From the NCBI GenBank assembly GCA_017553205.1, contig JAFZMV010000021.1:6571-70570 (forward strand): a DNA stretch of 64,000 nucleotides. The letters run 5' to 3'. The stretch comes from Selenomonadaceae bacterium (GTDB taxonomy: Bacteria > Bacillota > Negativicutes > Selenomonadales > Selenomonadaceae). Below the pieces are notes generated by a model that was not told the origin of the DNA, searched no databases, and saw only the letters and a list, made by a program, of their open reading frames with translations. Positions 2,444 to 11,828 of this stretch are shown one piece after another. How positions within the stretch are numbered: the first letter of the stretch is position 1; every line of letters begins with the position of its first letter. The position numbers and the translations under genes were made by a program.

Positions 2444-5400
2444 TTATTCAAAGTTGACTTCAGGCAAATTTTCAATAATTTCTAAAGTTTTTAAACTCAC
2501 CGTCATCGAACTTAACAACAATTTCAAAATATATTTTTCGTCGCCTATCTCTTCGCAAAAATCATTCGGATTATTTTCAATTCCGCTCGCATTATCAATT
2601 TTTATCTGATAACGCTCAATTATCCAATCAACAGGACTCCGACCGTTCACCACGTATTCAAAAATTTTTTCAGGAATATTTTTTATCGTGATGAACTCAT
2701 TATATTGCAAAATTTTTTTGTCCGCAGATAATTTCATTTTTTTGCCGATTAAATAATTTTTTTCAGAAATTTCTATCTCAACACACTCCGGCTTTTCAAA
2801 TTTTTCGTAATTCAAATGCACTTCAGCAAGTTCACGTCCGCACTCAGAAATTTTTTTAAATTTTTCCCACTCGTCTACCAAAAAAATTCTCGGCAAACTT
2901 TTTTTCAACTCAGCACTAAATTTCTCTCGATAACTCGGCAAATGCAAAAAGCCATATACATAATAAAAAATTTCTTCCTTCAGACTTTTTGCGTTACAAA
3001 AATTATTTTCACCGATTTTTTGCGTTACAAAAAGTCCGTACTTCTCTCGAGCCAAATTTTCTATAAAATCGCTCACTCCGTCCCGACGTAACGCCATTTC
3101 TGCAAATAAATTCCCCTCTTCTCGCTCATAATAATACAAAGGAAAACACTGAACGTCTCCAATGAAATGTACGTCGCAAATTTTTTTCGTCAAAAAAACT
3201 GAAAAATTTTTTGCTCCGCTGCCCGGTAAACAAATTAAAAGATTTTCGGAATTTTTCTCTGGAAAAAATTTTTTCGTCTGTCCGGGATAATTTATCAAAA
3301 AATCTCCGCGATAAATATTTTCTTCGCAAAATGGTCTGTAATAGCCTCTGAATAAATTTTTTTCGTCAAAAATAATTTTTTCGTCGTTTCGTGCGTGTCG
3401 ATAAAGTTCTCGCGTCCACGAAATTTTTTTTGCGTTCATATCAAAATTTTTTTCGATTTTAAATTTCTCTCGCTGTTCATTATAAAATTCAATCATTGAT
3501 GAAATATTTTTTTGCAAAGATTTTATCGAAAAATTATAAATCCAACTGTCCCGACCTGTTTCAATTCCACGCGAATAAATATTGAAAAAAACTTCCGCAG
3601 AATTATTTTTTTTGTCGCCAAGTAAAATATATTTCTCAAAAATATTTCCGCGTTGATTTATCCAATCATTTTTTTCATTCGGTTCAATTTTTTTAAATTC
3701 ATCGCTCAAAACAGTTTTAATCGCAGAAATTTTTTTAAGTTTTTGCTCGCGTGTCAGATAGTCGCCAATGTCGCAATAAAAAATTTCAGCTTTTTTATTT
3801 TGCGAAGGATTTTTCACTAAAATTGTTATCGCAATCGGAGCACGTGAACCGCTGCCAAAAATATTATCTTTTTCTTTTTTTCTAATTTCGCCTTGAGTGC
3901 GAGCATTTCCACGCAAATTAAAAATATAAATTTCGCTAAATTCTTCAGAAAAATTTTTTCTCAAGCCGTCCATAGCCGCACCGTCCAAAAATCCGGCATT
4001 TGTAACAAAACCAATCACGCCTTCAGAAATTCTGTCAGAAGCCCAGCGAAATGCTTTGATGTAAGAATCGTACAGAGAATTTTTATTTGTGGCGGAAGTA
4101 TTTTTTGCATAAGTTTCAGAAATTCTTGCAGAAATTTTTTCGTAAAAATTATTTTGATTGTTGTCATTTGCAGAGCGTTGACCGACAGAATACGGAGGAT
4201 TTCCGATAATAATTTGAATATTTTCATCAAGTTGATATTGAGAGCGTTGAAAATTTTCTTGAAGAGATTTTTTAAAATCTTCGCCGAGAAAAATTTCTCT
4301 GTCGTAAGCAATTTTATTTTTTTGATTCTCATAAGATTGAAAAGTATCTTGAAAAACAATTCCTTGAAACGGAAAATATTTTTCTGGATTAGAATTAAAA
4401 GCATTTTCAATATTTATGGCGGCGATGTAATAAGCGAGCAAAACAATTTCATTTGCATGAAGTTCGCCGGAAAATTTTCTGAACAAATCTTTTTTTTGAA
4501 TCAAGCCGCTTTGAATCAATCTGACAATAAAAGTTCCCGTGCCTGTGAACGGGTCGAGAATGTGAACATTTTTATCGGACAAAGTTTTTCCGAAATTTTT
4601 TTGCAAAACGTCGTTGACAGAATTTAAAATAAAATCGACGACTTCAACGGGCGTGTAAACAATTCCGAGTTTTGCGGAAGTTTTCGGCAGAGCAATTTTA
4701 AAAAAGCTGTCATAAAGTCGAATCAAAATTTCTTGGCGTTTTTTCCAATCATTTTTTAAATCGCCCATCGCTTTACATTCATTTTTAATTTGTTCGTAAA
4801 GTTTTTGAAAATTTTCGTGGTCTTTGTCAAAATTTTTTTCGTCGAGAAGATTTAAAATTTTTTGCAAAGCCTTCGACACGGGATTTTTTTGAACAAAATA
4901 AAAATTATCAAAAATCGCCTCAAAAATCGGACGCGTTACCAAATGTTGAGCAAGCATCTCAATCGCAGCATTTTCATCAATCGAAGTGCCGAGAGTTTTT
5001 TGCAAATCGGAAATAAAATTATCAAAAATATTTTTTGATTCGTCATCAGTTTCGATTAAATTTTTAATTTGCCGCGTGTGTCGTTCAACAACATCTTTGA
5101 CTTTGTAAGCCCACTGAATCCAATAAAGTTTGTTGCCGAGATTTTCAACAATTCGGGCGTAAATTTTATTTTTGAGATCGTCCCACTTCAAAAAATATTC
5201 GATAAAAATTTGTGGATTGTCTGCAGGTTTTTCAGGAAAAATTTCTTTATTCGGTCTTGCAACAATAATTTTTGAACTTTGCCCGGTATTACGAGTTTTT
5301 TCAATTTCGATATTCATTGCGTCATCATGAGCCCGCAGAGCATTTAAAATTTCAAAAATAATTTTAAAATCGTCGCTGTTTTTCAAAAATTCTTCGGGCT

Positions 5401-7213
5401 TTTGATTCATCGGAATAATGACGGGAATAATAATGTAACCGAATTTTTTATTTGTTGCTTTTCTCATCACTCTGCCGACAGCCTGAATAATTTCGACTTT
5501 AGATTTTCTTGACGACAAAAAAATAATTGAATCGAGAGCAGGAACATCAACGCCTTCAGAAAGGCAACGAACATTATTTAAAATATGACAAGAATTTTTT
5601 TCTGCGGAATTTTTTAATTTTTGAATTTCGATTGAGCGATTATTTGCGGAATATGATCCGTCAACGTGCGAAGAAGAAATTTTTACGAAATGATTTTTTT
5701 CAGAGTCTGACATATCTGCGAAAAATTTTTCTTGAACTTGCGGAAAAATTTCAGCGAATTTTTTTGACGTTACAATATTTTTGCAAAAAGAAACGGCACT
5801 GTGCATAAAATTTTTATCGTCGGCAATAAATTTTTCGGAGTTTTCGTCCATATTTTTTGAAAGAGAAATAATTGAGCCGACAATTTTTAAAGCGTCGTCA
5901 GTTTCCAAAGGTTTTTCGGTGATTTTATTTTTGTCGGTAATTTTTACATTTGCGTTTTTGAGCGAATTTGTCAAAAAAGTTTCGTCAACAGTCAAAACAA
6001 AAACTTTATAATCTGACAAAATATTTTTGCTGACAGCCTCCGCAAAAGAAATTTTGAAAAATTCTTTTCCGAAAGTTTCTTCGTCGTCCATAGACCATAC
6101 AGCCAATTTTTTTTCGTCGTCAGAATCTTTTGTATCAGTTTTAAAAAGCTTTGGCGTTGCAGTCATATAAATTCTTTTTTTCGCGGAAATAAAATTTTCG
6201 TCGTGAACTTTGACAAAATTTGTTTCTTTATCAAAACCTGTCGTTCTGTGAGCCTCGTCGCAAATAATTAAATCGAAATTTAAATTTAATTCGTGAACCA
6301 CGTCGATTGATTGATAAGTTGAAAAAATCACAGTCATTTTATCTGGAGAAAATTTTTCAATTTCGGCAGAAATTTTTTCAGAATCTGTCATGGCAGGAAT
6401 CGGCAAATTTACATCAGTAATTTCGTCGGCTTTACTTCCCGCAGTCGAATCTGAGCAAATACAAATTGCATTGATTGGATTTTCAGAAAAAGTTGCCCAC
6501 TCTTCAATAGTTTGTGACAAAAGCGAAATACTTGGCACGAGAAATAAAATTTTACCGTTTGGAGAAATTTTTTCAGCGATTTTTAAAGAAGTAAAAGTTT
6601 TACCTGTACCGCAAGCCATAATAAGTTGACCGCGAGAATTTTTTTGAAAATGTTCAGCGGCTTTATCGACAGCAATTTTTTGATAATCTTTTAAAGTTCG
6701 AGAAATTTTTGCATTTTCTCCAAAAAATCCGTTGTTCAAAAGTTGCCAATTAACTTGAGCCTGCCGCAAAATTTCAAGATTTATAATTTTTATTTCTGGC
6801 GACTGATTTTTCATCATTTCGAGAGCATTTGCAGAATAATTTTCAGTTGTTGAAATCCAAATTCTTTTTGAGAAAAATTTTTTTCCGTCATCAAATTTTC
6901 TTGCGGAGTTTGAAATAAAAGAATCGACCGCAGATTTTTCAACAGTTGAGTTATCGGAATAAAATTTACACTGCACGGCGACAAAATTTTCGTCAAAAGT
7001 TTTTGCAACCAAGTCGATGCCCAAATCTTTACCGCCCAAATCATTTTTGTAGGGAAAATTTTTCCAGAGCCAAACATTTGAAAATTTTCCGCGAAAAGGT
7101 GCGTAAGTGAGCAAAAAATTTTTCATCAAACGTTCAAAACATTCGCCTTTTTCTTTTTCCGACATGCAAAAAACTTCACGATAATTTTTTAAAAGTTCGT
7201 CAATCGTCGTCAT
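2444..7213 (-). CDS. Type ISP-like single-polypeptide restriction-modification enzyme (Mrr-like nuclease + SF2 translocase + N6-adenine methyltransferase + target recognition region)
   Basis: 1589-aa ORF; ATG at 7213 preceded by AAGGAGG. Motifs in order: PD-(D/E)xK-like GIDLVAK..VAVQCKF; Walker A MACGTGKTF; ICDEAHRT (DEAH); MTATPK; QAVGRVMR; MTase motif I ILDPFTGTGTF; motif IV GNPPYS; then a ~450-aa C-terminal region. Order and size match LlaGI/LlaBIII-type enzymes as I recall them. Confidence 0.8.
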   Translation of the reverse strand: MTTIDELLKNYREVFCMSEKEKGECFERLMKNFLLTYAPFRGKFSNVWLWKNFPYKNDLGGKDLGIDLVAKTFDENFVAVQCKFYSDNSTVEKSAVDSFISNSARKFDDGKKFFSKRIWISTTENYSANALEMMKNQSPEIKIINLEILRQAQVNWQLLNNGFFGENAKISRTLKDYQKIAVDKAAEHFQKNSRGQLIMACGTGKTFTSLKIAEKISPNGKILFLVPSISLLSQTIEEWATFSENPINAICICSDSTAGSKADEITDVNLPIPAMTDSEKISAEIEKFSPDKMTVIFSTYQSIDVVHELNLNFDLIICDEAHRTTGFDKETNFVKVHDENFISAKKRIYMTATPKLFKTDTKDSDDEKKLAVWSMDDEETFGKEFFKISFAEAVSKNILSDYKVFVLTVDETFLTNSLKNANVKITDKNKITEKPLETDDALKIVGSIISLSKNMDENSEKFIADDKNFMHSAVSFCKNIVTSKKFAEIFPQVQEKFFADMSDSEKNHFVKISSSHVDGSYSANNRSIEIQKLKNSAEKNSCHILNNVRCLSEGVDVPALDSIIFLSSRKSKVEIIQAVGRVMRKATNKKFGYIIIPVIIPMNQKPEEFLKNSDDFKIIFEILNALRAHDDAMNIEIEKTRNTGQSSKIIVARPNKEIFPEKPADNPQIFIEYFLKWDDLKNKIYARIVENLGNKLYWIQWAYKVKDVVERHTRQIKNLIETDDESKNIFDNFISDLQKTLGTSIDENAAIEMLAQHLVTRPIFEAIFDNFYFVQKNPVSKALQKILNLLDEKNFDKDHENFQKLYEQIKNECKAMGDLKNDWKKRQEILIRLYDSFFKIALPKTSAKLGIVYTPVEVVDFILNSVNDVLQKNFGKTLSDKNVHILDPFTGTGTFIVRLIQSGLIQKKDLFRKFSGELHANEIVLLAYYIAAINIENAFNSNPEKYFPFQGIVFQDTFQSYENQKNKIAYDREIFLGEDFKKSLQENFQRSQYQLDENIQIIIGNPPYSVGQRSANDNNQNNFYEKISARISETYAKNTSATNKNSLYDSYIKAFRWASDRISEGVIGFVTNAGFLDGAAMDGLRKNFSEEFSEIYIFNLRGNARTQGEIRKKEKDNIFGSGSRAPIAITILVKNPSQNKKAEIFYCDIGDYLTREQKLKKISAIKTVLSDEFKKIEPNEKNDWINQRGNIFEKYILLGDKKNNSAEVFFNIYSRGIETGRDSWIYNFSIKSLQKNISSMIEFYNEQREKFKIEKNFDMNAKKISWTRELYRHARNDEKIIFDEKNLFRGYYRPFCEENIYRGDFLINYPGQTKKFFPEKNSENLLICLPGSGAKNFSVFLTKKICDVHFIGDVQCFPLYYYEREEGNLFAEMALRRDGVSDFIENLAREKYGLFVTQKIGENNFCNAKSLKEEIFYYVYGFLHLPSYREKFSAELKKSLPRIFLVDEWEKFKKISECGRELAEVHLNYEKFEKPECVEIEISEKNYLIGKKMKLSADKKILQYNEFITIKNIPEKIFEYVVNGRSPVDWIIERYQIKIDNASGIENNPNDFCEEIGDEKYILKLLLSSMTVSLKTLEIIENLPEVNFE

Positions 7214-7395: not shown

Positions 7396-9759
7396 ATGAT
7401 AGAAATTTTTGATGGAGCAATGGGGACAATGTTACAGCAGGGCGGATTAAAAGCCGGAGCATGTCCCGAACTTATGAATATTGAAAGTCCTGAAGTCGTA
7501 AAAAAAATTCATCGTGCTTATATCGACGCAGGCTCAACAATTATTACAACAAATACTTTTGGTGCAAGCAGTTTAAAACTTTCTCATTACGGAATTGCCG
7601 AAAGAATGGAAGAAATAAATTTTGCTGCCGTAAAAATTGCCCGTGAAGTTGCGGAAGATAAAATTAAAATTGCCGGTGATTTGGGACCTACAGGAAAATT
7701 TATTTATCCTCTCGGCGATTTAGATTTTGAGGACGCATATAAAATTTTTTCTGAACAGGCCCAGGCACTTGCAGAGGCTGGAGCAGATTTTTTAATTATT
7801 GAAACCTGCATTGACATTCAAGAAATGCGGGCTGCACTTTTGGCGGCTCATGATGTTTGCAATTTGCCTGTAATTTGTCAACTTTCTTACAGTGAGGACG
7901 GAAGAACGGTAACGGGAACAGATCCGCAGTCGGCGGCAGTAATTCTTGACGCAATGGGAGCGGATATTATCGGAATAAATTGTTCGCTTGGTCCTGAACA
8001 ACTTGTTCCCGTCGTGAAAATTCTTTCCGAAAATACAAATAAAAAAATTTCTGTTCAACCTAATGCGGGCATGCCTTATCTTGAAAACGGCGTTACAAAA
8101 TTTCCGATGGACGCAAAAACTTTTGGCAGTTGGGGCAAAAAACTTGTTGAGGCTGGAGCAAGTTATTTGGGCGGCTGTTGCGGAACCACTCCCGAACATA
8201 TTAGAGAACTTTCAAATAATGTAAAAAATTTGCAAGAAATCGAAAGAAATTTTTCAAAAACTTTAAAACTTTCCAGTCGGAGTAAAACTGTTGAGATTGA
8301 TAAAAATTTGTCAACTGCTTTAATCGGTGAGAGAATAAATCCTACAGGCAGAAAAAAACTTGCCGCAGAAATTCGCGAAGGTTCTTTAATCGGTGTGAAA
8401 CGCGATGCAATTCAGCAAGTTAAAGCGGGTGCGAATGTTTTAGATGTCAATATGGGAGTCGGCGGAATAGATCAAGCCGCGATGATGAAAAAAGCCGTGC
8501 AGGAAATTTCTCAAATTACTGACGCTCCACTTTCGATTGACACTTCAGACGAAAAAGCACTTGAAGCAGGTTTGAGAATTTATCCCGGACGAGCTTTGAT
8601 AAATTCCGTGAGTTTTGAGCCGGACAGAATAAAAAATTTTTTACCGCTTGCAAAAAAATACGGTGCGGCAATTTTAATTTTGCCGTTGACTGAAAAAGGC
8701 GTTCCGAAAACTGCAGAAGAAAGAATCGAAGTCGCAGAAAAAATTTTGGACGAGGCAAAAAAAGTCGGACTGACGGACGGAGATTTTTTACTTGATGCGT
8801 TAGTAATGACAATTTCTGCAGATAAAAATGCTTGCTTGGAAGTTTTGAAAACTTTAAAACTTTATCGCGAAAAATTCGGTTATCCTTCGACAATGGGACT
8901 TTCAAATATTTCTTTCGGACTTCCTAACCGTCCTTTGATAAATTCAACTTTTTTTGCGATGTGTCTTTCAGCAGGTCTTGACGCTCCCATAATGAATCCT
9001 TATGACGAATCAATGCAGAATATTTTAAAAGCAAGTTCGGCACTTATCGGCAAAGATGAAAACGGTTTAGAGTACAGCAAAAATTTTTCAAACATTTCAC
9101 AGACTGTGACGGAGAAAAAAATTATTTCCACAAATATTTTGGACGCTGTGAAAAATGCTGTCATTGAAGGCGAAAAAGATGAAATTGCAGAACTAATCAA
9201 AAAAGCCGTCGCAGAAAATCATGACGCAAACGAAATTACAGAAAAATCTTTAACCGCGGCGATGAATGACATAGGCGAGGACTTTGGAGCGGGAAAAATT
9301 TTTCTTCCGCAAGTTTTATTGAGTGCTGAAACCATGAGAACGGCTTTTGACAAATTGAAAGAACTTTTACCCGCCGCCGATACAAAGAGCGAAGGAACTT
9401 TTGTAATTGCTACCGTCAAGGGCGACATACATGACTTGGGAAAAAATATTACCGGTGCACTTTTGGCGAACAGCGGATTTAATTTGATTGATTTGGGGAA
9501 AGATGTTGACTCTGAAAAAATTGTTCGTGCGGCGATTGAAAATAACGCTGACATTGTAGGACTTTGTGCTTTGATGACAACGACTATGATTCAAATTGAT
9601 AAAGTTATCGAAGATTTGAAAAATGCAGGCTGTAATGCAAAAGTTATGGTCGGCGGAGCGGCTTTAACTCAAGAATATGCAGACAGTGCAGGGGCTGACG
9701 CTTACGCAAAAGACGGAGTTGAAGCTGTGAAACTTGCAAAAAAAATGTTAGAAAAATAA
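7396..9759 (+). CDS. metH: Cobalamin-dependent methionine synthase, short form (Hcy-binding + pterin-binding + B12-binding domains, no reactivation domain)
   Basis: N-terminal homocysteine S-methyltransferase domain (..GGCCGTTPEHI), a central pterin-binding domain, and a C-terminal B12 domain with DxHxxG (GDIHDLGKN). AAGGAG lies upstream of the ATG. Confidence 0.9.
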   Translation: MIEIFDGAMGTMLQQGGLKAGACPELMNIESPEVVKKIHRAYIDAGSTIITTNTFGASSLKLSHYGIAERMEEINFAAVKIAREVAEDKIKIAGDLGPTGKFIYPLGDLDFEDAYKIFSEQAQALAEAGADFLIIETCIDIQEMRAALLAAHDVCNLPVICQLSYSEDGRTVTGTDPQSAAVILDAMGADIIGINCSLGPEQLVPVVKILSENTNKKISVQPNAGMPYLENGVTKFPMDAKTFGSWGKKLVEAGASYLGGCCGTTPEHIRELSNNVKNLQEIERNFSKTLKLSSRSKTVEIDKNLSTALIGERINPTGRKKLAAEIREGSLIGVKRDAIQQVKAGANVLDVNMGVGGIDQAAMMKKAVQEISQITDAPLSIDTSDEKALEAGLRIYPGRALINSVSFEPDRIKNFLPLAKKYGAAILILPLTEKGVPKTAEERIEVAEKILDEAKKVGLTDGDFLLDALVMTISADKNACLEVLKTLKLYREKFGYPSTMGLSNISFGLPNRPLINSTFFAMCLSAGLDAPIMNPYDESMQNILKASSALIGKDENGLEYSKNFSNISQTVTEKKIISTNILDAVKNAVIEGEKDEIAELIKKAVAENHDANEITEKSLTAAMNDIGEDFGAGKIFLPQVLLSAETMRTAFDKLKELLPAADTKSEGTFVIATVKGDIHDLGKNITGALLANSGFNLIDLGKDVDSEKIVRAAIENNADIVGLCALMTTTMIQIDKVIEDLKNAGCNAKVMVGGAALTQEYADSAGADAYAKDGVEAVKLAKKMLEK

Positions 9760-9837
9760 TCTAAAAAAATTTTTCGCTTGTTTTTTTGTATTCGACAAAG
9801 TAAAATTACAACTTGAGGTGATATTTGAAATGTCAAT

Positions 9838-10165
9838 AACCCCGCGCCTAAAGGCGGGGGCTTGCAAAAAGTCCTGATTGACTAGCTTAAGTCTTAACTG
9901 ACTACGTTACCTGCGAAAATATAGGTACCTGCGAGCGTAAATCCTAACTTGTAACTCTACGGCTTATGGTTAAACAGTTCTGAGGGGTAGGGACGGTGCT
10001 GTAAGTATACAAAACCGCAGGATAACATTGGCGAAGGATTATTACTCTAGCGGGCGGAGGCTTTAAAAGCAATTAAGCTCGCTCGTCTTTTGGCGAAAAA
10101 ACTTATTTGATAGAGAGGAGGAGTGCGGTTTCCTCCCCACTGCTAAAGCAGGGGGTATCCACCGC
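9838..10165. ncRNA. Candidate structured RNA / long structured htrA leader of unknown class (GC-rich island)
   Basis: About 45-50% G+C in a ~33% background, with stops in all frames. It is bounded by two hairpins of identical architecture: CCCC-G-CGCC UAAA GGCG-GGGG at 9840-9860 and CCCC-A-CUGC UAAA GCAG-GGGG at 10135-10155. Further internal hairpins include ggagga/tcctcc at 10117-10136. Strand is not resolved. Confidence 0.45.
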
Positions 10166-10171
10166 ACATAT

Positions 10172-11290
10172 TTGATGAAATCCAAAAATTTTAAAAAGTT
10201 TGTTTTTGCGGCTTTTATGTGTAGTGCTTTACTTTTGAGCGGCTGTGATAAAAATATCGGAGAAGATTCTGTTGACGATAACGGAAAAGCCGTTGTAAAA
10301 ACTTCTGCAGAAGCGGCAACGAGCAGTTCTTCAAAAGCATCTGACGCAAGAAATACTCCTGTTGTCCGCGTTGCAAAATCTGTCGGACCTTCAGTTGTCG
10401 GAATAACAAATAAAGCAGTTGCGAGAGATTTTTTTAATCGCACTGTAGAAACTGAAGGAGTCGGCTCCGGCGTAATTTTCCGCAAAGACGGTTATATTGT
10501 TACAAACAATCATGTTATTGCAGGTGCAAAGGAATTAATCGTTTCACTTTCTGACGGCAATACTGTCAACGGAGAATTGGTCGGTGCAGATGAAATTACA
10601 GATATTGCTGTTGTAAAAGTCAACGCGAAAGATTTGCCTGTTGCAACTTTTGGAAATTCTGATGATGTTATGGTTGGTGAACCTGCTATTGCTATCGGAA
10701 ATCCTATGGGCTTAGAATTTCAAGGCTCTGTTACTGTCGGAGTTATCAGTGCACTTAACAGAACTTTGGAACTTAATGACAGACGCGTAAAACTTTTACA
10801 AACTGACGCGGCAATAAGTCCCGGAAATTCGGGCGGAGCTTTGTTGAATGCTGACGGAGAAGTTATCGGAATTAACAGTGCGAAACTTGCAACAAACGGA
10901 GTAGAAGGCATGGGCTTTGCAATTCCGATAAACACCGTGCAGAGTATTATTAACGAACTTATGGAAAAAGGTTATGTTGCTCGCCCGTATCTCGGAGTGA
11001 CGATTTTTGATAAACAAACTGCCGCCCGTTACGGATATTCACTGAGTATTGAAAAAGGCGTATATGTTTTTCAAATTGCTGTCGGTTCTCCCGCAGATAA
11101 AGCAGGACTTCAACGCGGAGATATTATTTTGGCTGTAGACGACAAAGAAGTTAATTCCGTGACAGAAGTCAGAAACGATATTGCCGCCAGAAAAATCGGC
11201 GATAAAGTTAAAGTCAAATACGATCGCGACGGAAAAGAAACGACTGTTGAAATTGAATTAAAAGAAATACCTCAGCCGACCAATCAATAA
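10172..11290 (+). CDS. htrA: HtrA/DegP-family serine protease with one PDZ domain, lipoprotein-type signal peptide
   Basis: Catalytic triad contexts TNNHVIAG, DIAVVKV and GNSGGALL, plus a C-terminal PDZ. The N-terminus is K-rich with lipobox LLLSGC. Start is TTG 10172 or ATG 10175. Confidence 0.88.
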   Translation: MMKSKNFKKFVFAAFMCSALLLSGCDKNIGEDSVDDNGKAVVKTSAEAATSSSSKASDARNTPVVRVAKSVGPSVVGITNKAVARDFFNRTVETEGVGSGVIFRKDGYIVTNNHVIAGAKELIVSLSDGNTVNGELVGADEITDIAVVKVNAKDLPVATFGNSDDVMVGEPAIAIGNPMGLEFQGSVTVGVISALNRTLELNDRRVKLLQTDAAISPGNSGGALLNADGEVIGINSAKLATNGVEGMGFAIPINTVQSIINELMEKGYVARPYLGVTIFDKQTAARYGYSLSIEKGVYVFQIAVGSPADKAGLQRGDIILAVDDKEVNSVTEVRNDIAARKIGDKVKVKYDRDGKETTVEIELKEIPQPTNQ

Positions 11291-11369: not shown

Positions 11370-11828
11370 TTATTTTTCTTCGCTGTCTTTTTCAACTTCT
11401 GCCGAAACTTTATTTTCAATTTCGATGGGGAAAGTGACAACTTTTAAAGCGGTGAGAGTTTTTGCCGCTCCTTCTTCCAACAAATCAAAATCGCGGAGTT
11501 CGCTTTCATTTCCGACTTTGTGCCATTTGTCTTCATCGTCTTTGAAGTACATTTCAAATTCAAGCTGAAAATGTTTTTCGTCAGCAAATTTCACATGAAA
11601 TTTTCCCGCACTGTACTGCAGACCTGCTTTTTCGTTTTTCTCGATAATTTCGGTAAGACGCGGCAAGGCAACTTCTTTAATATCCTCAATTTTCATGTTG
11701 GGCTTGAGGAGATTTTTAAAAAAATCCTTGACATTTTCGGCGACAACTTTTGCCTTTTCTACAGTCGATTCAACAGACTCTTTAGCCTTATCCATTTGTT
11801 TATCGACCGTTTCTTTTGTAATTGCCAT
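11370..11828 (-). CDS. Hypothetical acidic, lysine/glutamate-rich protein (152 aa)
   Basis: Clean ORF with coding-like composition. No family recognised. Confidence 0.5.
   Translation of the reverse strand: MAITKETVDKQMDKAKESVESTVEKAKVVAENVKDFFKNLLKPNMKIEDIKEVALPRLTEIIEKNEKAGLQYSAGKFHVKFADEKHFQLEFEMYFKDDEDKWHKVGNESELRDFDLLEEGAAKTLTALKVVTFPIEIENKVSAEVEKDSEEK

Follow-up and report, generated by a model that had tools for sequence, protein, structure and literature searches.

Positions 9832-10174 (plus strand) of the 64,000-nucleotide stretch of Selenomonadaceae DNA analysed here (the window; contig JAFZMV010000021.1) form a 343-nt mobile unit that ends directly at the start codon of htrA. The unit very probably belongs to the IS200/IS605 superfamily, as a non-autonomous ISC-type element that encodes no protein; this PATE-like derivative carries the omegaRNA of the nuclease IscB. 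The RNA is a member of the known HEARO/omegaRNA family whose partner gene is lost at the htrA locus, and two look-alike hairpins near the borders are the subterminal hairpins of the right end (RE) and left end (LE) of the transposon. An earlier sequence-only reading had singled out 9838-10165 as a structured RNA of unassigned class; the features it listed are real, and the natural unit is slightly wider. All parts of the element are already in the literature, and the novelty is confined to the occurrence of this particular element family in the lineage and to its location within the htrA leader.

Utilizing cmscan against Rfam 15, we obtained a match to HEARO (RF02033) at 9832-10045 on the plus strand, with 127.9 bits against a gathering score of 83 (E 1.2e-27). 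The match spans the whole model, positions 1-211 of 211. It is the single Rfam match on either strand between 9000 and 11000 and, for the whole window, the sole structured-RNA match besides one tRNA. The unassigned class thus gives way in substance to a curated family, one outside the four classical families (rnpB, ssrA, ffs and 6S) that the sequence-only reading had named, and the alternative it had kept in reserve, a known Rfam family that went unrecognised, turns out to be right. Later papers showed that HEARO is the omegaRNA, the guide RNA of the transposon-encoded IscB. The scaffold opens with P1, in which GUCAAU (9832-9837) pairs with AUUGAC (9877-9882), and shares with HEARO this helix, the first hairpin, the helices of the pseudoknot region and the multi-stem core, with compensatory changes between copies. 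An RNAalifold consensus was built from six copies: four orphans (the window copy, those on contigs C143 and C142 of the same assembly, and one from genome G002) and the IscB-linked copies of genomes G317 and G035. It contains 55 pairs, 27 of which are kept via changes on both sides. Covariation over six sequences, which falls short of a formal statistical test, appears supportive of the HEARO structure. A local helix tacct/aggta proposed earlier does not belong to this fold; the family structure pairs GUUACCUGCG with the distant CGCAGGAUAAC instead.

The scaffold runs on past the Rfam model into a 3' extension at 10046-10096 on the same strand, composed of two further hairpins, AGCGGGC (10049-10055) with GCUCGCU (10077-10083) and a terminal hairpin UCGUC UUUU GGCGA (10083-10096). 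RF02033 is without the downstream (3') elements according to Meers et al. The terminal hairpin covaries, being TCGTC/GGCGA in the window copy, TCGCC/GGCGA in C138 and C142, TCCTC/GAGGA in G002 and G012, and CCCTC/GAGGG in G317. These extra 3' hairpins are also seen ahead of iscB in G317 and G035, where the equivalent terminal hairpin stands immediately before the ribosome-binding site (RBS) of the gene. Canonical loci are built accordingly: HEARO, IscB with RRXRR and HNH domains, then Y1_Tnp in G035; HEARO, terminal hairpin, RBS and IscB in G317; HEARO followed by an annotated iscB on the Natranaerobius plasmid pNTHE02. The unit differs from them in that no IscB/HNH open reading frame (ORF) lies downstream and the left end of the transposon comes directly after the scaffold. 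The next ORF is htrA, and no co-oriented IscB ORF is linked to the RNA at this locus.

The unit is a dispersed repeat with closed frames and an empty site in relatives. The assembly (2.39 Mb, 171 contigs, 92% complete) holds seven HEARO-type covariance model matches, four of them above cut-off, and the three passing copies other than that of the window score 137.8, 116.1 and 114.5 bits. BLAST with the 343-nt unit returned 15 off-locus pieces, spread over 14 further contigs and in several cases lying at a contig end, which amounts to at least four full copies in the genome plus fragments. Identity to the window copy is 95.3% for C138, 93.6% for C143 and about 82% for C142; fragments lie on C25, C40, C93, C19, C171, C97, C44, C146 and C163. 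When the copies are aligned, the fixed unit runs from GTCAAT (9832) to CACATATTTG (10174) and the flanks are unrelated. The recurrence of the unit at unrelated loci, always with the same ends, takes its features beyond chance. Each of the six frames of 9832-10174 contains 5-9 stops, the longest open stretch being 42 codons, in agreement with the stops reported earlier for every frame. The G+C enrichment also holds (47.6% for 9838-10165), although the background had been set too low at about 33%: the window has 37.6% and the genome 37.2%.

A constant linkage to htrA, which had been raised as a possibility, is not found. The genes after other copies encode a Peripla_BP_2 lipoprotein (C142), a DUF4931 protein (C138), an SDR-type N-terminus (in the relative G002) and HslV (G012), and the unit is absent from the htrA leaders of the same-genus genomes G010 and G004. 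HEARO was found in three of the 25 genomes searched from the genus (this genome, G000, with G002 and G012) and in five of 301 sampled from the class. The copy in same-genus G012 (contig C9, about 11400-11760) is a shorter derivative, in which the first ~100 nt of HEARO are followed by ~60 nt of unrelated sequence, a hairpin CCTCTTTGGAGG and the conserved LE tail GGGGGTATCCGCCGCGCTTATTTG, which abuts ATGAA. The derivative lies directly upstream of the Shine-Dalgarno (SD) sequence of an hslV-like gene; both ends are kept and the interior differs.

The two hairpins lie where they had been described, at 9840-9860 (CCCC-G-CGCC TAAA GGCG-GGGG) and 10135-10155 (CCCC-A-CTGC TAAA GCAG-GGGG), and both fold as predicted in single-strand folding. 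Their same architecture with different inner stems is therefore real, but they are transposase-binding ends of a transposon and not the brackets of a new RNA fold, and what had been called compensatory changes in the inner stems set apart two paralogous protein-binding hairpins that belong to the same element. The top strand of the transposon is the minus strand of the window. On it, the RE hairpin (9840-9860), which is also the first HEARO hairpin, reads CCCCCGCC TTTA GGCG-C-GGGG, followed by TTATTGAC and the boundary. The LE segment (10113-10174, minus strand) comprises a purine run GGAGGAG at 10117-10123, an outer stem 10123-10129/10161-10167 and the LE hairpin at 10135-10155. Its top strand reads TTCAT, then the boundary, then CAAATAT GTGCGGT GGATA CCCCCTGC TTTA GCAG-T-GGGG AGGAA ACCGCAC. 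The LE hairpin is thus 19 nt from the element boundary and the RE hairpin 8 nt (TTATTGAC). These are subterminal imperfect hairpins at both ends, and there are no terminal inverted repeats. Both ends vary between copies in a manner that keeps pairing: the RE hairpin of C143 has a compensatory change to CTCC/GGAG instead of CCCC/GGGG, and the LE outer stem covaries in C142 (GTCGC/GCGAC). A pairing of ggagga with tcctcc within 10117-10136, proposed earlier, can form, but the outer stem is better supported.

In IS608 and ISDra2, the target motif is followed after about 19 nt by the LE hairpin, the RE hairpin lies about 8-10 nt from the end, the hairpins carry an extrahelical base, and there are neither inverted terminal repeats nor a target duplication. 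The geometry of the unit is of this IS608 type. Its target differs, being TTCAT as against TTAC or TTGAT for IS608 and ISDra2, and so does its cargo: in place of tnpA/tnpB, the unit carries an IscB-type RNA that is read off the bottom strand. ISC transposons begin with 5'-GT(CA), bear subterminal imperfect hairpins at both ends for a Y1 transposase and insert at N/ATGA sites, the slash marking the point of insertion (Kapitonov, Makarova and Koonin 2016, PMC4810608). Their termini are common to TnpB-only IS605B elements in which tnpB is antisense to iscB, and protein-less PATE relatives exist (PMC4810608). The unit conforms to the ISC N/ATGA class in its 5'-GTCA terminus, its insertion directly upstream of ATGA without target duplication, its hairpins at both ends, and the termini that it has in common with a TnpB-only IS605B element carrying an antisense tnpB. 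It differs in size and content, for the described ISC elements are 1.3-1.7 kb and encode IscB, whereas the unit has 343 nt and no ORF. Meers et al. described protein-less PATEs with omegaRNAs that are acted on in trans. The unit resembles these in being protein-less, in having both IS200/IS605-type ends, in its guide-RNA scaffold and in sharing the target-adjacent motif (TAM) TTCAT with GstIscB. Like them, it would depend on TnpA and a nuclease supplied in trans. Geobacillus stearothermophilus has both helpers, TnpA and IscB, whereas neither is detectable in this genome.

The TnpB-only element with shared termini is from Bifidobacterium longum. When annotated plasmids were searched at low stringency, positions 294-336 of the unit (the second hairpin and linker) matched NZ_CP065398.1 at 90.7%. 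The match precedes by about 58 nt a gene on the opposite strand annotated as "RNA-guided endonuclease TnpB family protein", and this is the expected LE site. That element has an LE of CCCCCGGC TTTA GCCG-T-GGGG and an RE of CCCCCGGC TTTA GCCG-C-GGGG leading to GTCAAC at the boundary. Its end architecture is that of the unit, and even the bulged bases agree (T at LE, C at RE). Its tnpB is antisense relative to the omegaRNA of the unit. A second hairpin past tnpA in G035, CCAC-GA-GCC TGAA GGC-GTA-GTGG, similarly mirrors the HEARO hairpin of that locus, CCAC-T-CCC CTAAA GGG-ATA-GTGG. The left ends of G035 and G317 have diverged too far to be aligned directly, end to end, with that of the unit.

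The seven junctions that were inspected, five in this genome and two in same-genus genomes, all end directly at ATGAA. At the window locus ATGAA (10175-10179, plus strand; TTCAT on the top strand) is the htrA start codon and two further bases. Its reverse complement, TTCAT, is the TAM that Meers et al. report for GstIscB, and ATGAA itself contains the N/ATGA target of ISC transposons. When the unit is removed, the joined flanks read GAGGTGATATTTGAAAT directly followed by ATGAAATCC, and the htrA orthologues of G010 and G004 continue straight across this joint with no element. Their leaders, CTTGT-N(16-17)-AAAGTAAAAT...GGAGGT-(8-9 nt)-ATGAAAATT, are colinear with the joined flanks and show no duplicated bases. 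These colinear, element-free leaders indicate that the unit was inserted between the htrA promoter and SD on one side and the ATG on the other. G007 has the promoter-like motif and has GGAGGTATTGAAAATG at the insertion position, so there is no ATGAA junction there. For the G002 copy, the joined flanks give GGAGGAAATGTG followed by ATGAAC. A crude count found 10,384 ATGAA sites in the genome: 8,829 inside coding sequences, 277 at called starts and 1,278 otherwise intergenic. Gene starts thus make up at least ~18% of the ATGAA sites outside coding sequence. Given this count and selection against intragenic insertions, special targeting of start codons is unneeded.

The host gene htrA (10175-11290, plus strand, 371 aa) lies outside the element. 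It encodes Trypsin_2 and PDZ domains behind a lipoprotein-type signal peptide ending LLSGC, and is intact and single-copy in the assembly. A promoter-like site in host DNA is found at 9778-9806 on the same strand, with a -35 of TTGTTT (9778-9783), a 17-nt spacer and a -10 of TAAAAT (9801-9806). It scores 8/12 against the consensus and is consequently unlisted by a simple consensus scan. The motif CTTGT-N(16-17)-AAAGTAAAAT is nevertheless kept upstream of htrA across four species of the genus (the orthologues in G010, G004 and G007), whereas the surrounding spacer is not, and the site likely acts as the htrA promoter. Between it and the unit lies the former htrA 5' untranslated region (UTR) at 9812-9831 (plus strand), which includes the SD GAGGTG (9815-9820). 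The insertion moved this SD 343 nt further from the ATG at 10175. The old UTR now occupies the place of the guide, namely the 16-20 nt directly 5' of the scaffold; in IscB systems the guide position is immediately 5' of the scaffold (Meers et al.). A 15-codon ORF at 9830-9877 (plus strand), MSITPRLKAGACKKS, begins nine nt after the old SD, exactly as had been described. Its ATG is formed from AT of the flank and the first base, G, of the element. Other copies have TT, AA, AG or CG ahead of GTCAA and so give no such ATG, which is why we regard the ORF as a by-product of the junction. No terminator-like site was listed by the consensus scan in 9700-10300, so that transcription would run on into htrA. 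As the only htrA copy, and an intact one, the gene must still have its translation start at 10175. The purine run at 10117-10123 was considered as a remnant of an iscB SD and rejected as sole explanation, because it is also kept in the LE of the B. longum TnpB element. Translational coupling from a 22-codon ORF (10107-10175, ending UGAUG) is a weak candidate, with a TTG start and no SD, and the UGAUG overlap is uninformative as a coupling signal because TGA is inherent in any insertion at ATGAA.

These data allow a sequence of events to be proposed. The plus strand reads RE, a complete omegaRNA scaffold to about 10096, and then LE in the place of iscB. By analogy with related elements, the two hairpins would serve as binding sites for a Y1 transposase (TnpA) on the single-stranded top strand, and the unit was inserted without target duplication immediately beside the TTCAT (ATGAA on the plus strand) that here holds the htrA start codon. 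TnpA supplied in trans may have spread the copies in the past, and IscB may once have guarded them, using the RNAs of the unit as homing guides. In this genome the copies would now be immobile relics, the helpers having probably been lost since or being missing from the fragmented assembly. Transcription from the htrA promoter-like site would start near 9813-9816. In the resulting RNA, 16-19 nt of the old 5' UTR would stand where the guide belongs, ahead of the scaffold, and both would lie within the htrA leader. The structured htrA leader suggested earlier therefore stands in part: the unit probably does form the htrA 5' leader now, but it is not specific to htrA. With IscB absent, the RNA has no known activity. 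For the guide-equivalent flanks, no second target with at most two mismatches plus ATGA was found in this genome beyond generic SD-spacer-ATG contexts.

The helpers were sought in six frames through stops over the 2.39 Mb of the assembly. For IscB, NF040563 gave only one 27-bit HNH match and PF14239 (RRXRR) gave none. For the Y1 transposase, PF01797 had no match in the six-frame genome search, in which control genomes were positive. IscB above cut-off was found in none of the 24 same-genus genomes searched. The ORF behind this HNH match, which is on C73 and is the only HNH ORF found in the assembly, was considered as a cryptic IscB and rejected, as it is a group II intron reverse transcriptase/maturase with a YADD motif. 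This 356-aa ORF (C73:10604-11674), with YADD and a C-terminal HNH, is a truncated group II intron protein. In another 12 genomes of the genus, HNH-only matches fall in ORFs or read-through frames 345-382 aa long.

Several points weigh against the relic element that we favour. The assembly is 92% complete and in 171 contigs, several of which break inside the unit repeat, so a copy of IscB or TnpA could be missing from it or unbinned. No full-length parent with both ends and iscB was found by exact-motif scans of public genomes and metagenomes. The same scans, run with the LE motif AAAGCAGGGGGTATCCACCGC and the extension motif GCGGGCGGAGGCTTTAAAAGCAATTAAGC, returned no matches in public genome and metagenome contigs, and thus no near-identical copies are visible outside this genome. 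In the subfamily of C142, the two end hairpins are less alike than in the window copy. The empty-site orthologues are only ~66-69% identical, and the insertion point is thus fixed by the ATGAA rule, with a margin of one or two bases, rather than by a same-species polymorphism; an exact database look-up of the HtrA protein gave no record and therefore no same-species empty site. Finally, we infer the strand, ends and expression of the RNA from the DNA.

The incompleteness of the assembly bears on the possibility that the omegaRNAs are live and act in trans. Both IscB and TnpA would then lie in the ~8% of the genome that is unassembled, or on a plasmid or phage left unbinned. Transposition of the elements would be continuing, and their RNAs, once loaded into IscB, would direct it to cut the empty sites of these same elements. 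Recent activity is suggested by the 93.6-95.3% identity of three copies and by the several contigs that break off within the repeat; moreover, the scaffold is complete, with its structure intact. Meers et al. have already described PATEs acted on in trans, and report that iscB is rarely near tnpA (~1.5%) and relies on distant helpers. However, the six-frame searches found neither IscB/IsrB (RRXRR) nor Y1_Tnp, and the 0 of 24 genomes with IscB stand beside the 3 of 25 with HEARO. We find it quite unlikely that these elements are still served in trans. As for a new class of structured noncoding RNA, or a riboregulator specific to htrA, the stretch is indeed G+C-rich, highly structured and non-coding. 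The full-length match to a curated family, the unrelated genes that the unit precedes, its absence from the orthologous htrA leaders of G010 and G004, and the restriction of HEARO to three of the 25 genus genomes searched leave this explanation with virtually no chance.

A third alternative, compatible with a relic element, is that the unit has been co-opted as a 5' leader, its LE giving a replacement RBS to genes whose start codon it hits. The GGAG run (10117-10123) lies just 5' of a stem-loop at 10123-10167, and 7 nt separate the 3' foot of this stem-loop from the AUG. Once folded, the hairpin would link SD and start codon across the gap, and htrA expression might be modulated by the structured leader. 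Consistent with this, htrA is intact and single-copy even with its own SD displaced by 343 nt, the unit contains no terminator-like site, and four of seven insertions are exactly at intact gene starts. The arrangement of GGAG, stem-loop, 7 nt and AUG recurs in the window copy, C143, C138, C44 and C142, with covariation in the stem, and G002 has GGGGG-CAA-hairpin-AACTACT-ATG. On the other hand, the purine run and stem are also present in the B. longum TnpB LE, with no gene start after it, and may serve transposase recognition on DNA and not translation. GGAGGA can pair instead with UCCUCC (10131-10136). Landing at start codons is about what is expected from an ATGAA target and selection, with at least ~18% of the tolerable sites being gene starts, and the insertions may be recent and mildly harmful. 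Such co-option is unlikely on balance. A bolder form of the idea would hold that ISC/IS605 elements with an N/ATGA target, which often hit start codons exactly, evolved in their LE an outward-facing, hairpin-bridged SD that keeps invaded genes translated while the host promoter and 5' UTR supply transcript and guide. The orphan unit would then be a functional leader of the htrA, binding-protein, DUF4931 and SDR genes and not inert debris. We consider this distinctly unlikely.

With the relic element as the preferred reading, the practical value lies mainly in annotation: a GC-rich RNA can be assigned to a known guide-RNA family, and the DNA that carries it to a known type of mini-transposon. 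The absence of an SD directly before htrA is explained by displacement. The locus exemplifies three published points, namely protein-less PATE omegaRNAs, ISC/TnpB ends common across phyla, and landing at start codons through ATGA/TTCAT. The remaining curiosity is the translation of a single-copy htrA with its SD displaced 343 nt upstream. Should LE indeed supply a portable RBS, this would be a modest new point on how such transposons limit harm to the host, and would show a way in which host promoters get captured for guide-RNA expression.

Two other loci in the assembly carry partial relatives of the unit. On the minus strand of C44 (7682-8696) there is a solo LE-type end, unit positions 272-343 at 93% identity, which ends at ATGAA. 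It comes directly after an IS607-type serine-recombinase gene, called by eye from its N-terminal sequence, and is also preceded by the apparent first codons of a tnpB-like ORF, likewise by eye. The solo LE is 8 nt ahead of the TTG start of a glycosyltransferase-like gene (MKILILSASIGSGH...), and the contig ends ~270 nt upstream; the locus may be a chimeric or rearranged element. On C163 (1-729, minus strand), a degenerate HEARO copy of 66 bits with an internal insertion is followed within ~80 nt by a TnpB N-terminus (HTH_OrfB_IS605, 62 bits) that is cut by the contig end. This layout indicates that IscB-type RNA relics and TnpB elements neighbour each other in this genome. In B. longum, secY and cas5e lie beside the TnpB element (NZ_CP065398.1, 103384-109426). 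The 198-kb record is labelled "plasmid p1" and looks like chromosomal sequence labelled as plasmid.

Upstream of the unit, the metH-type gene (7396-9759, plus strand) encodes 787 aa with a homocysteine S-methyltransferase domain, a pterin-binding domain and two B12-binding domains; the protein had no Pfam match for a C-terminal reactivation domain. Across the genus, metH and htrA do not keep this adjacency; in most relatives they are on different contigs. Elsewhere in the window, the minus strand at 2444-7213 encodes a 1589-aa Type ISP restriction-modification enzyme with an Mrr_cat_2 nuclease, SF2 helicase, coupler, methyltransferase and Type_ISP_C domains, and cheX and fliY genes are also present.

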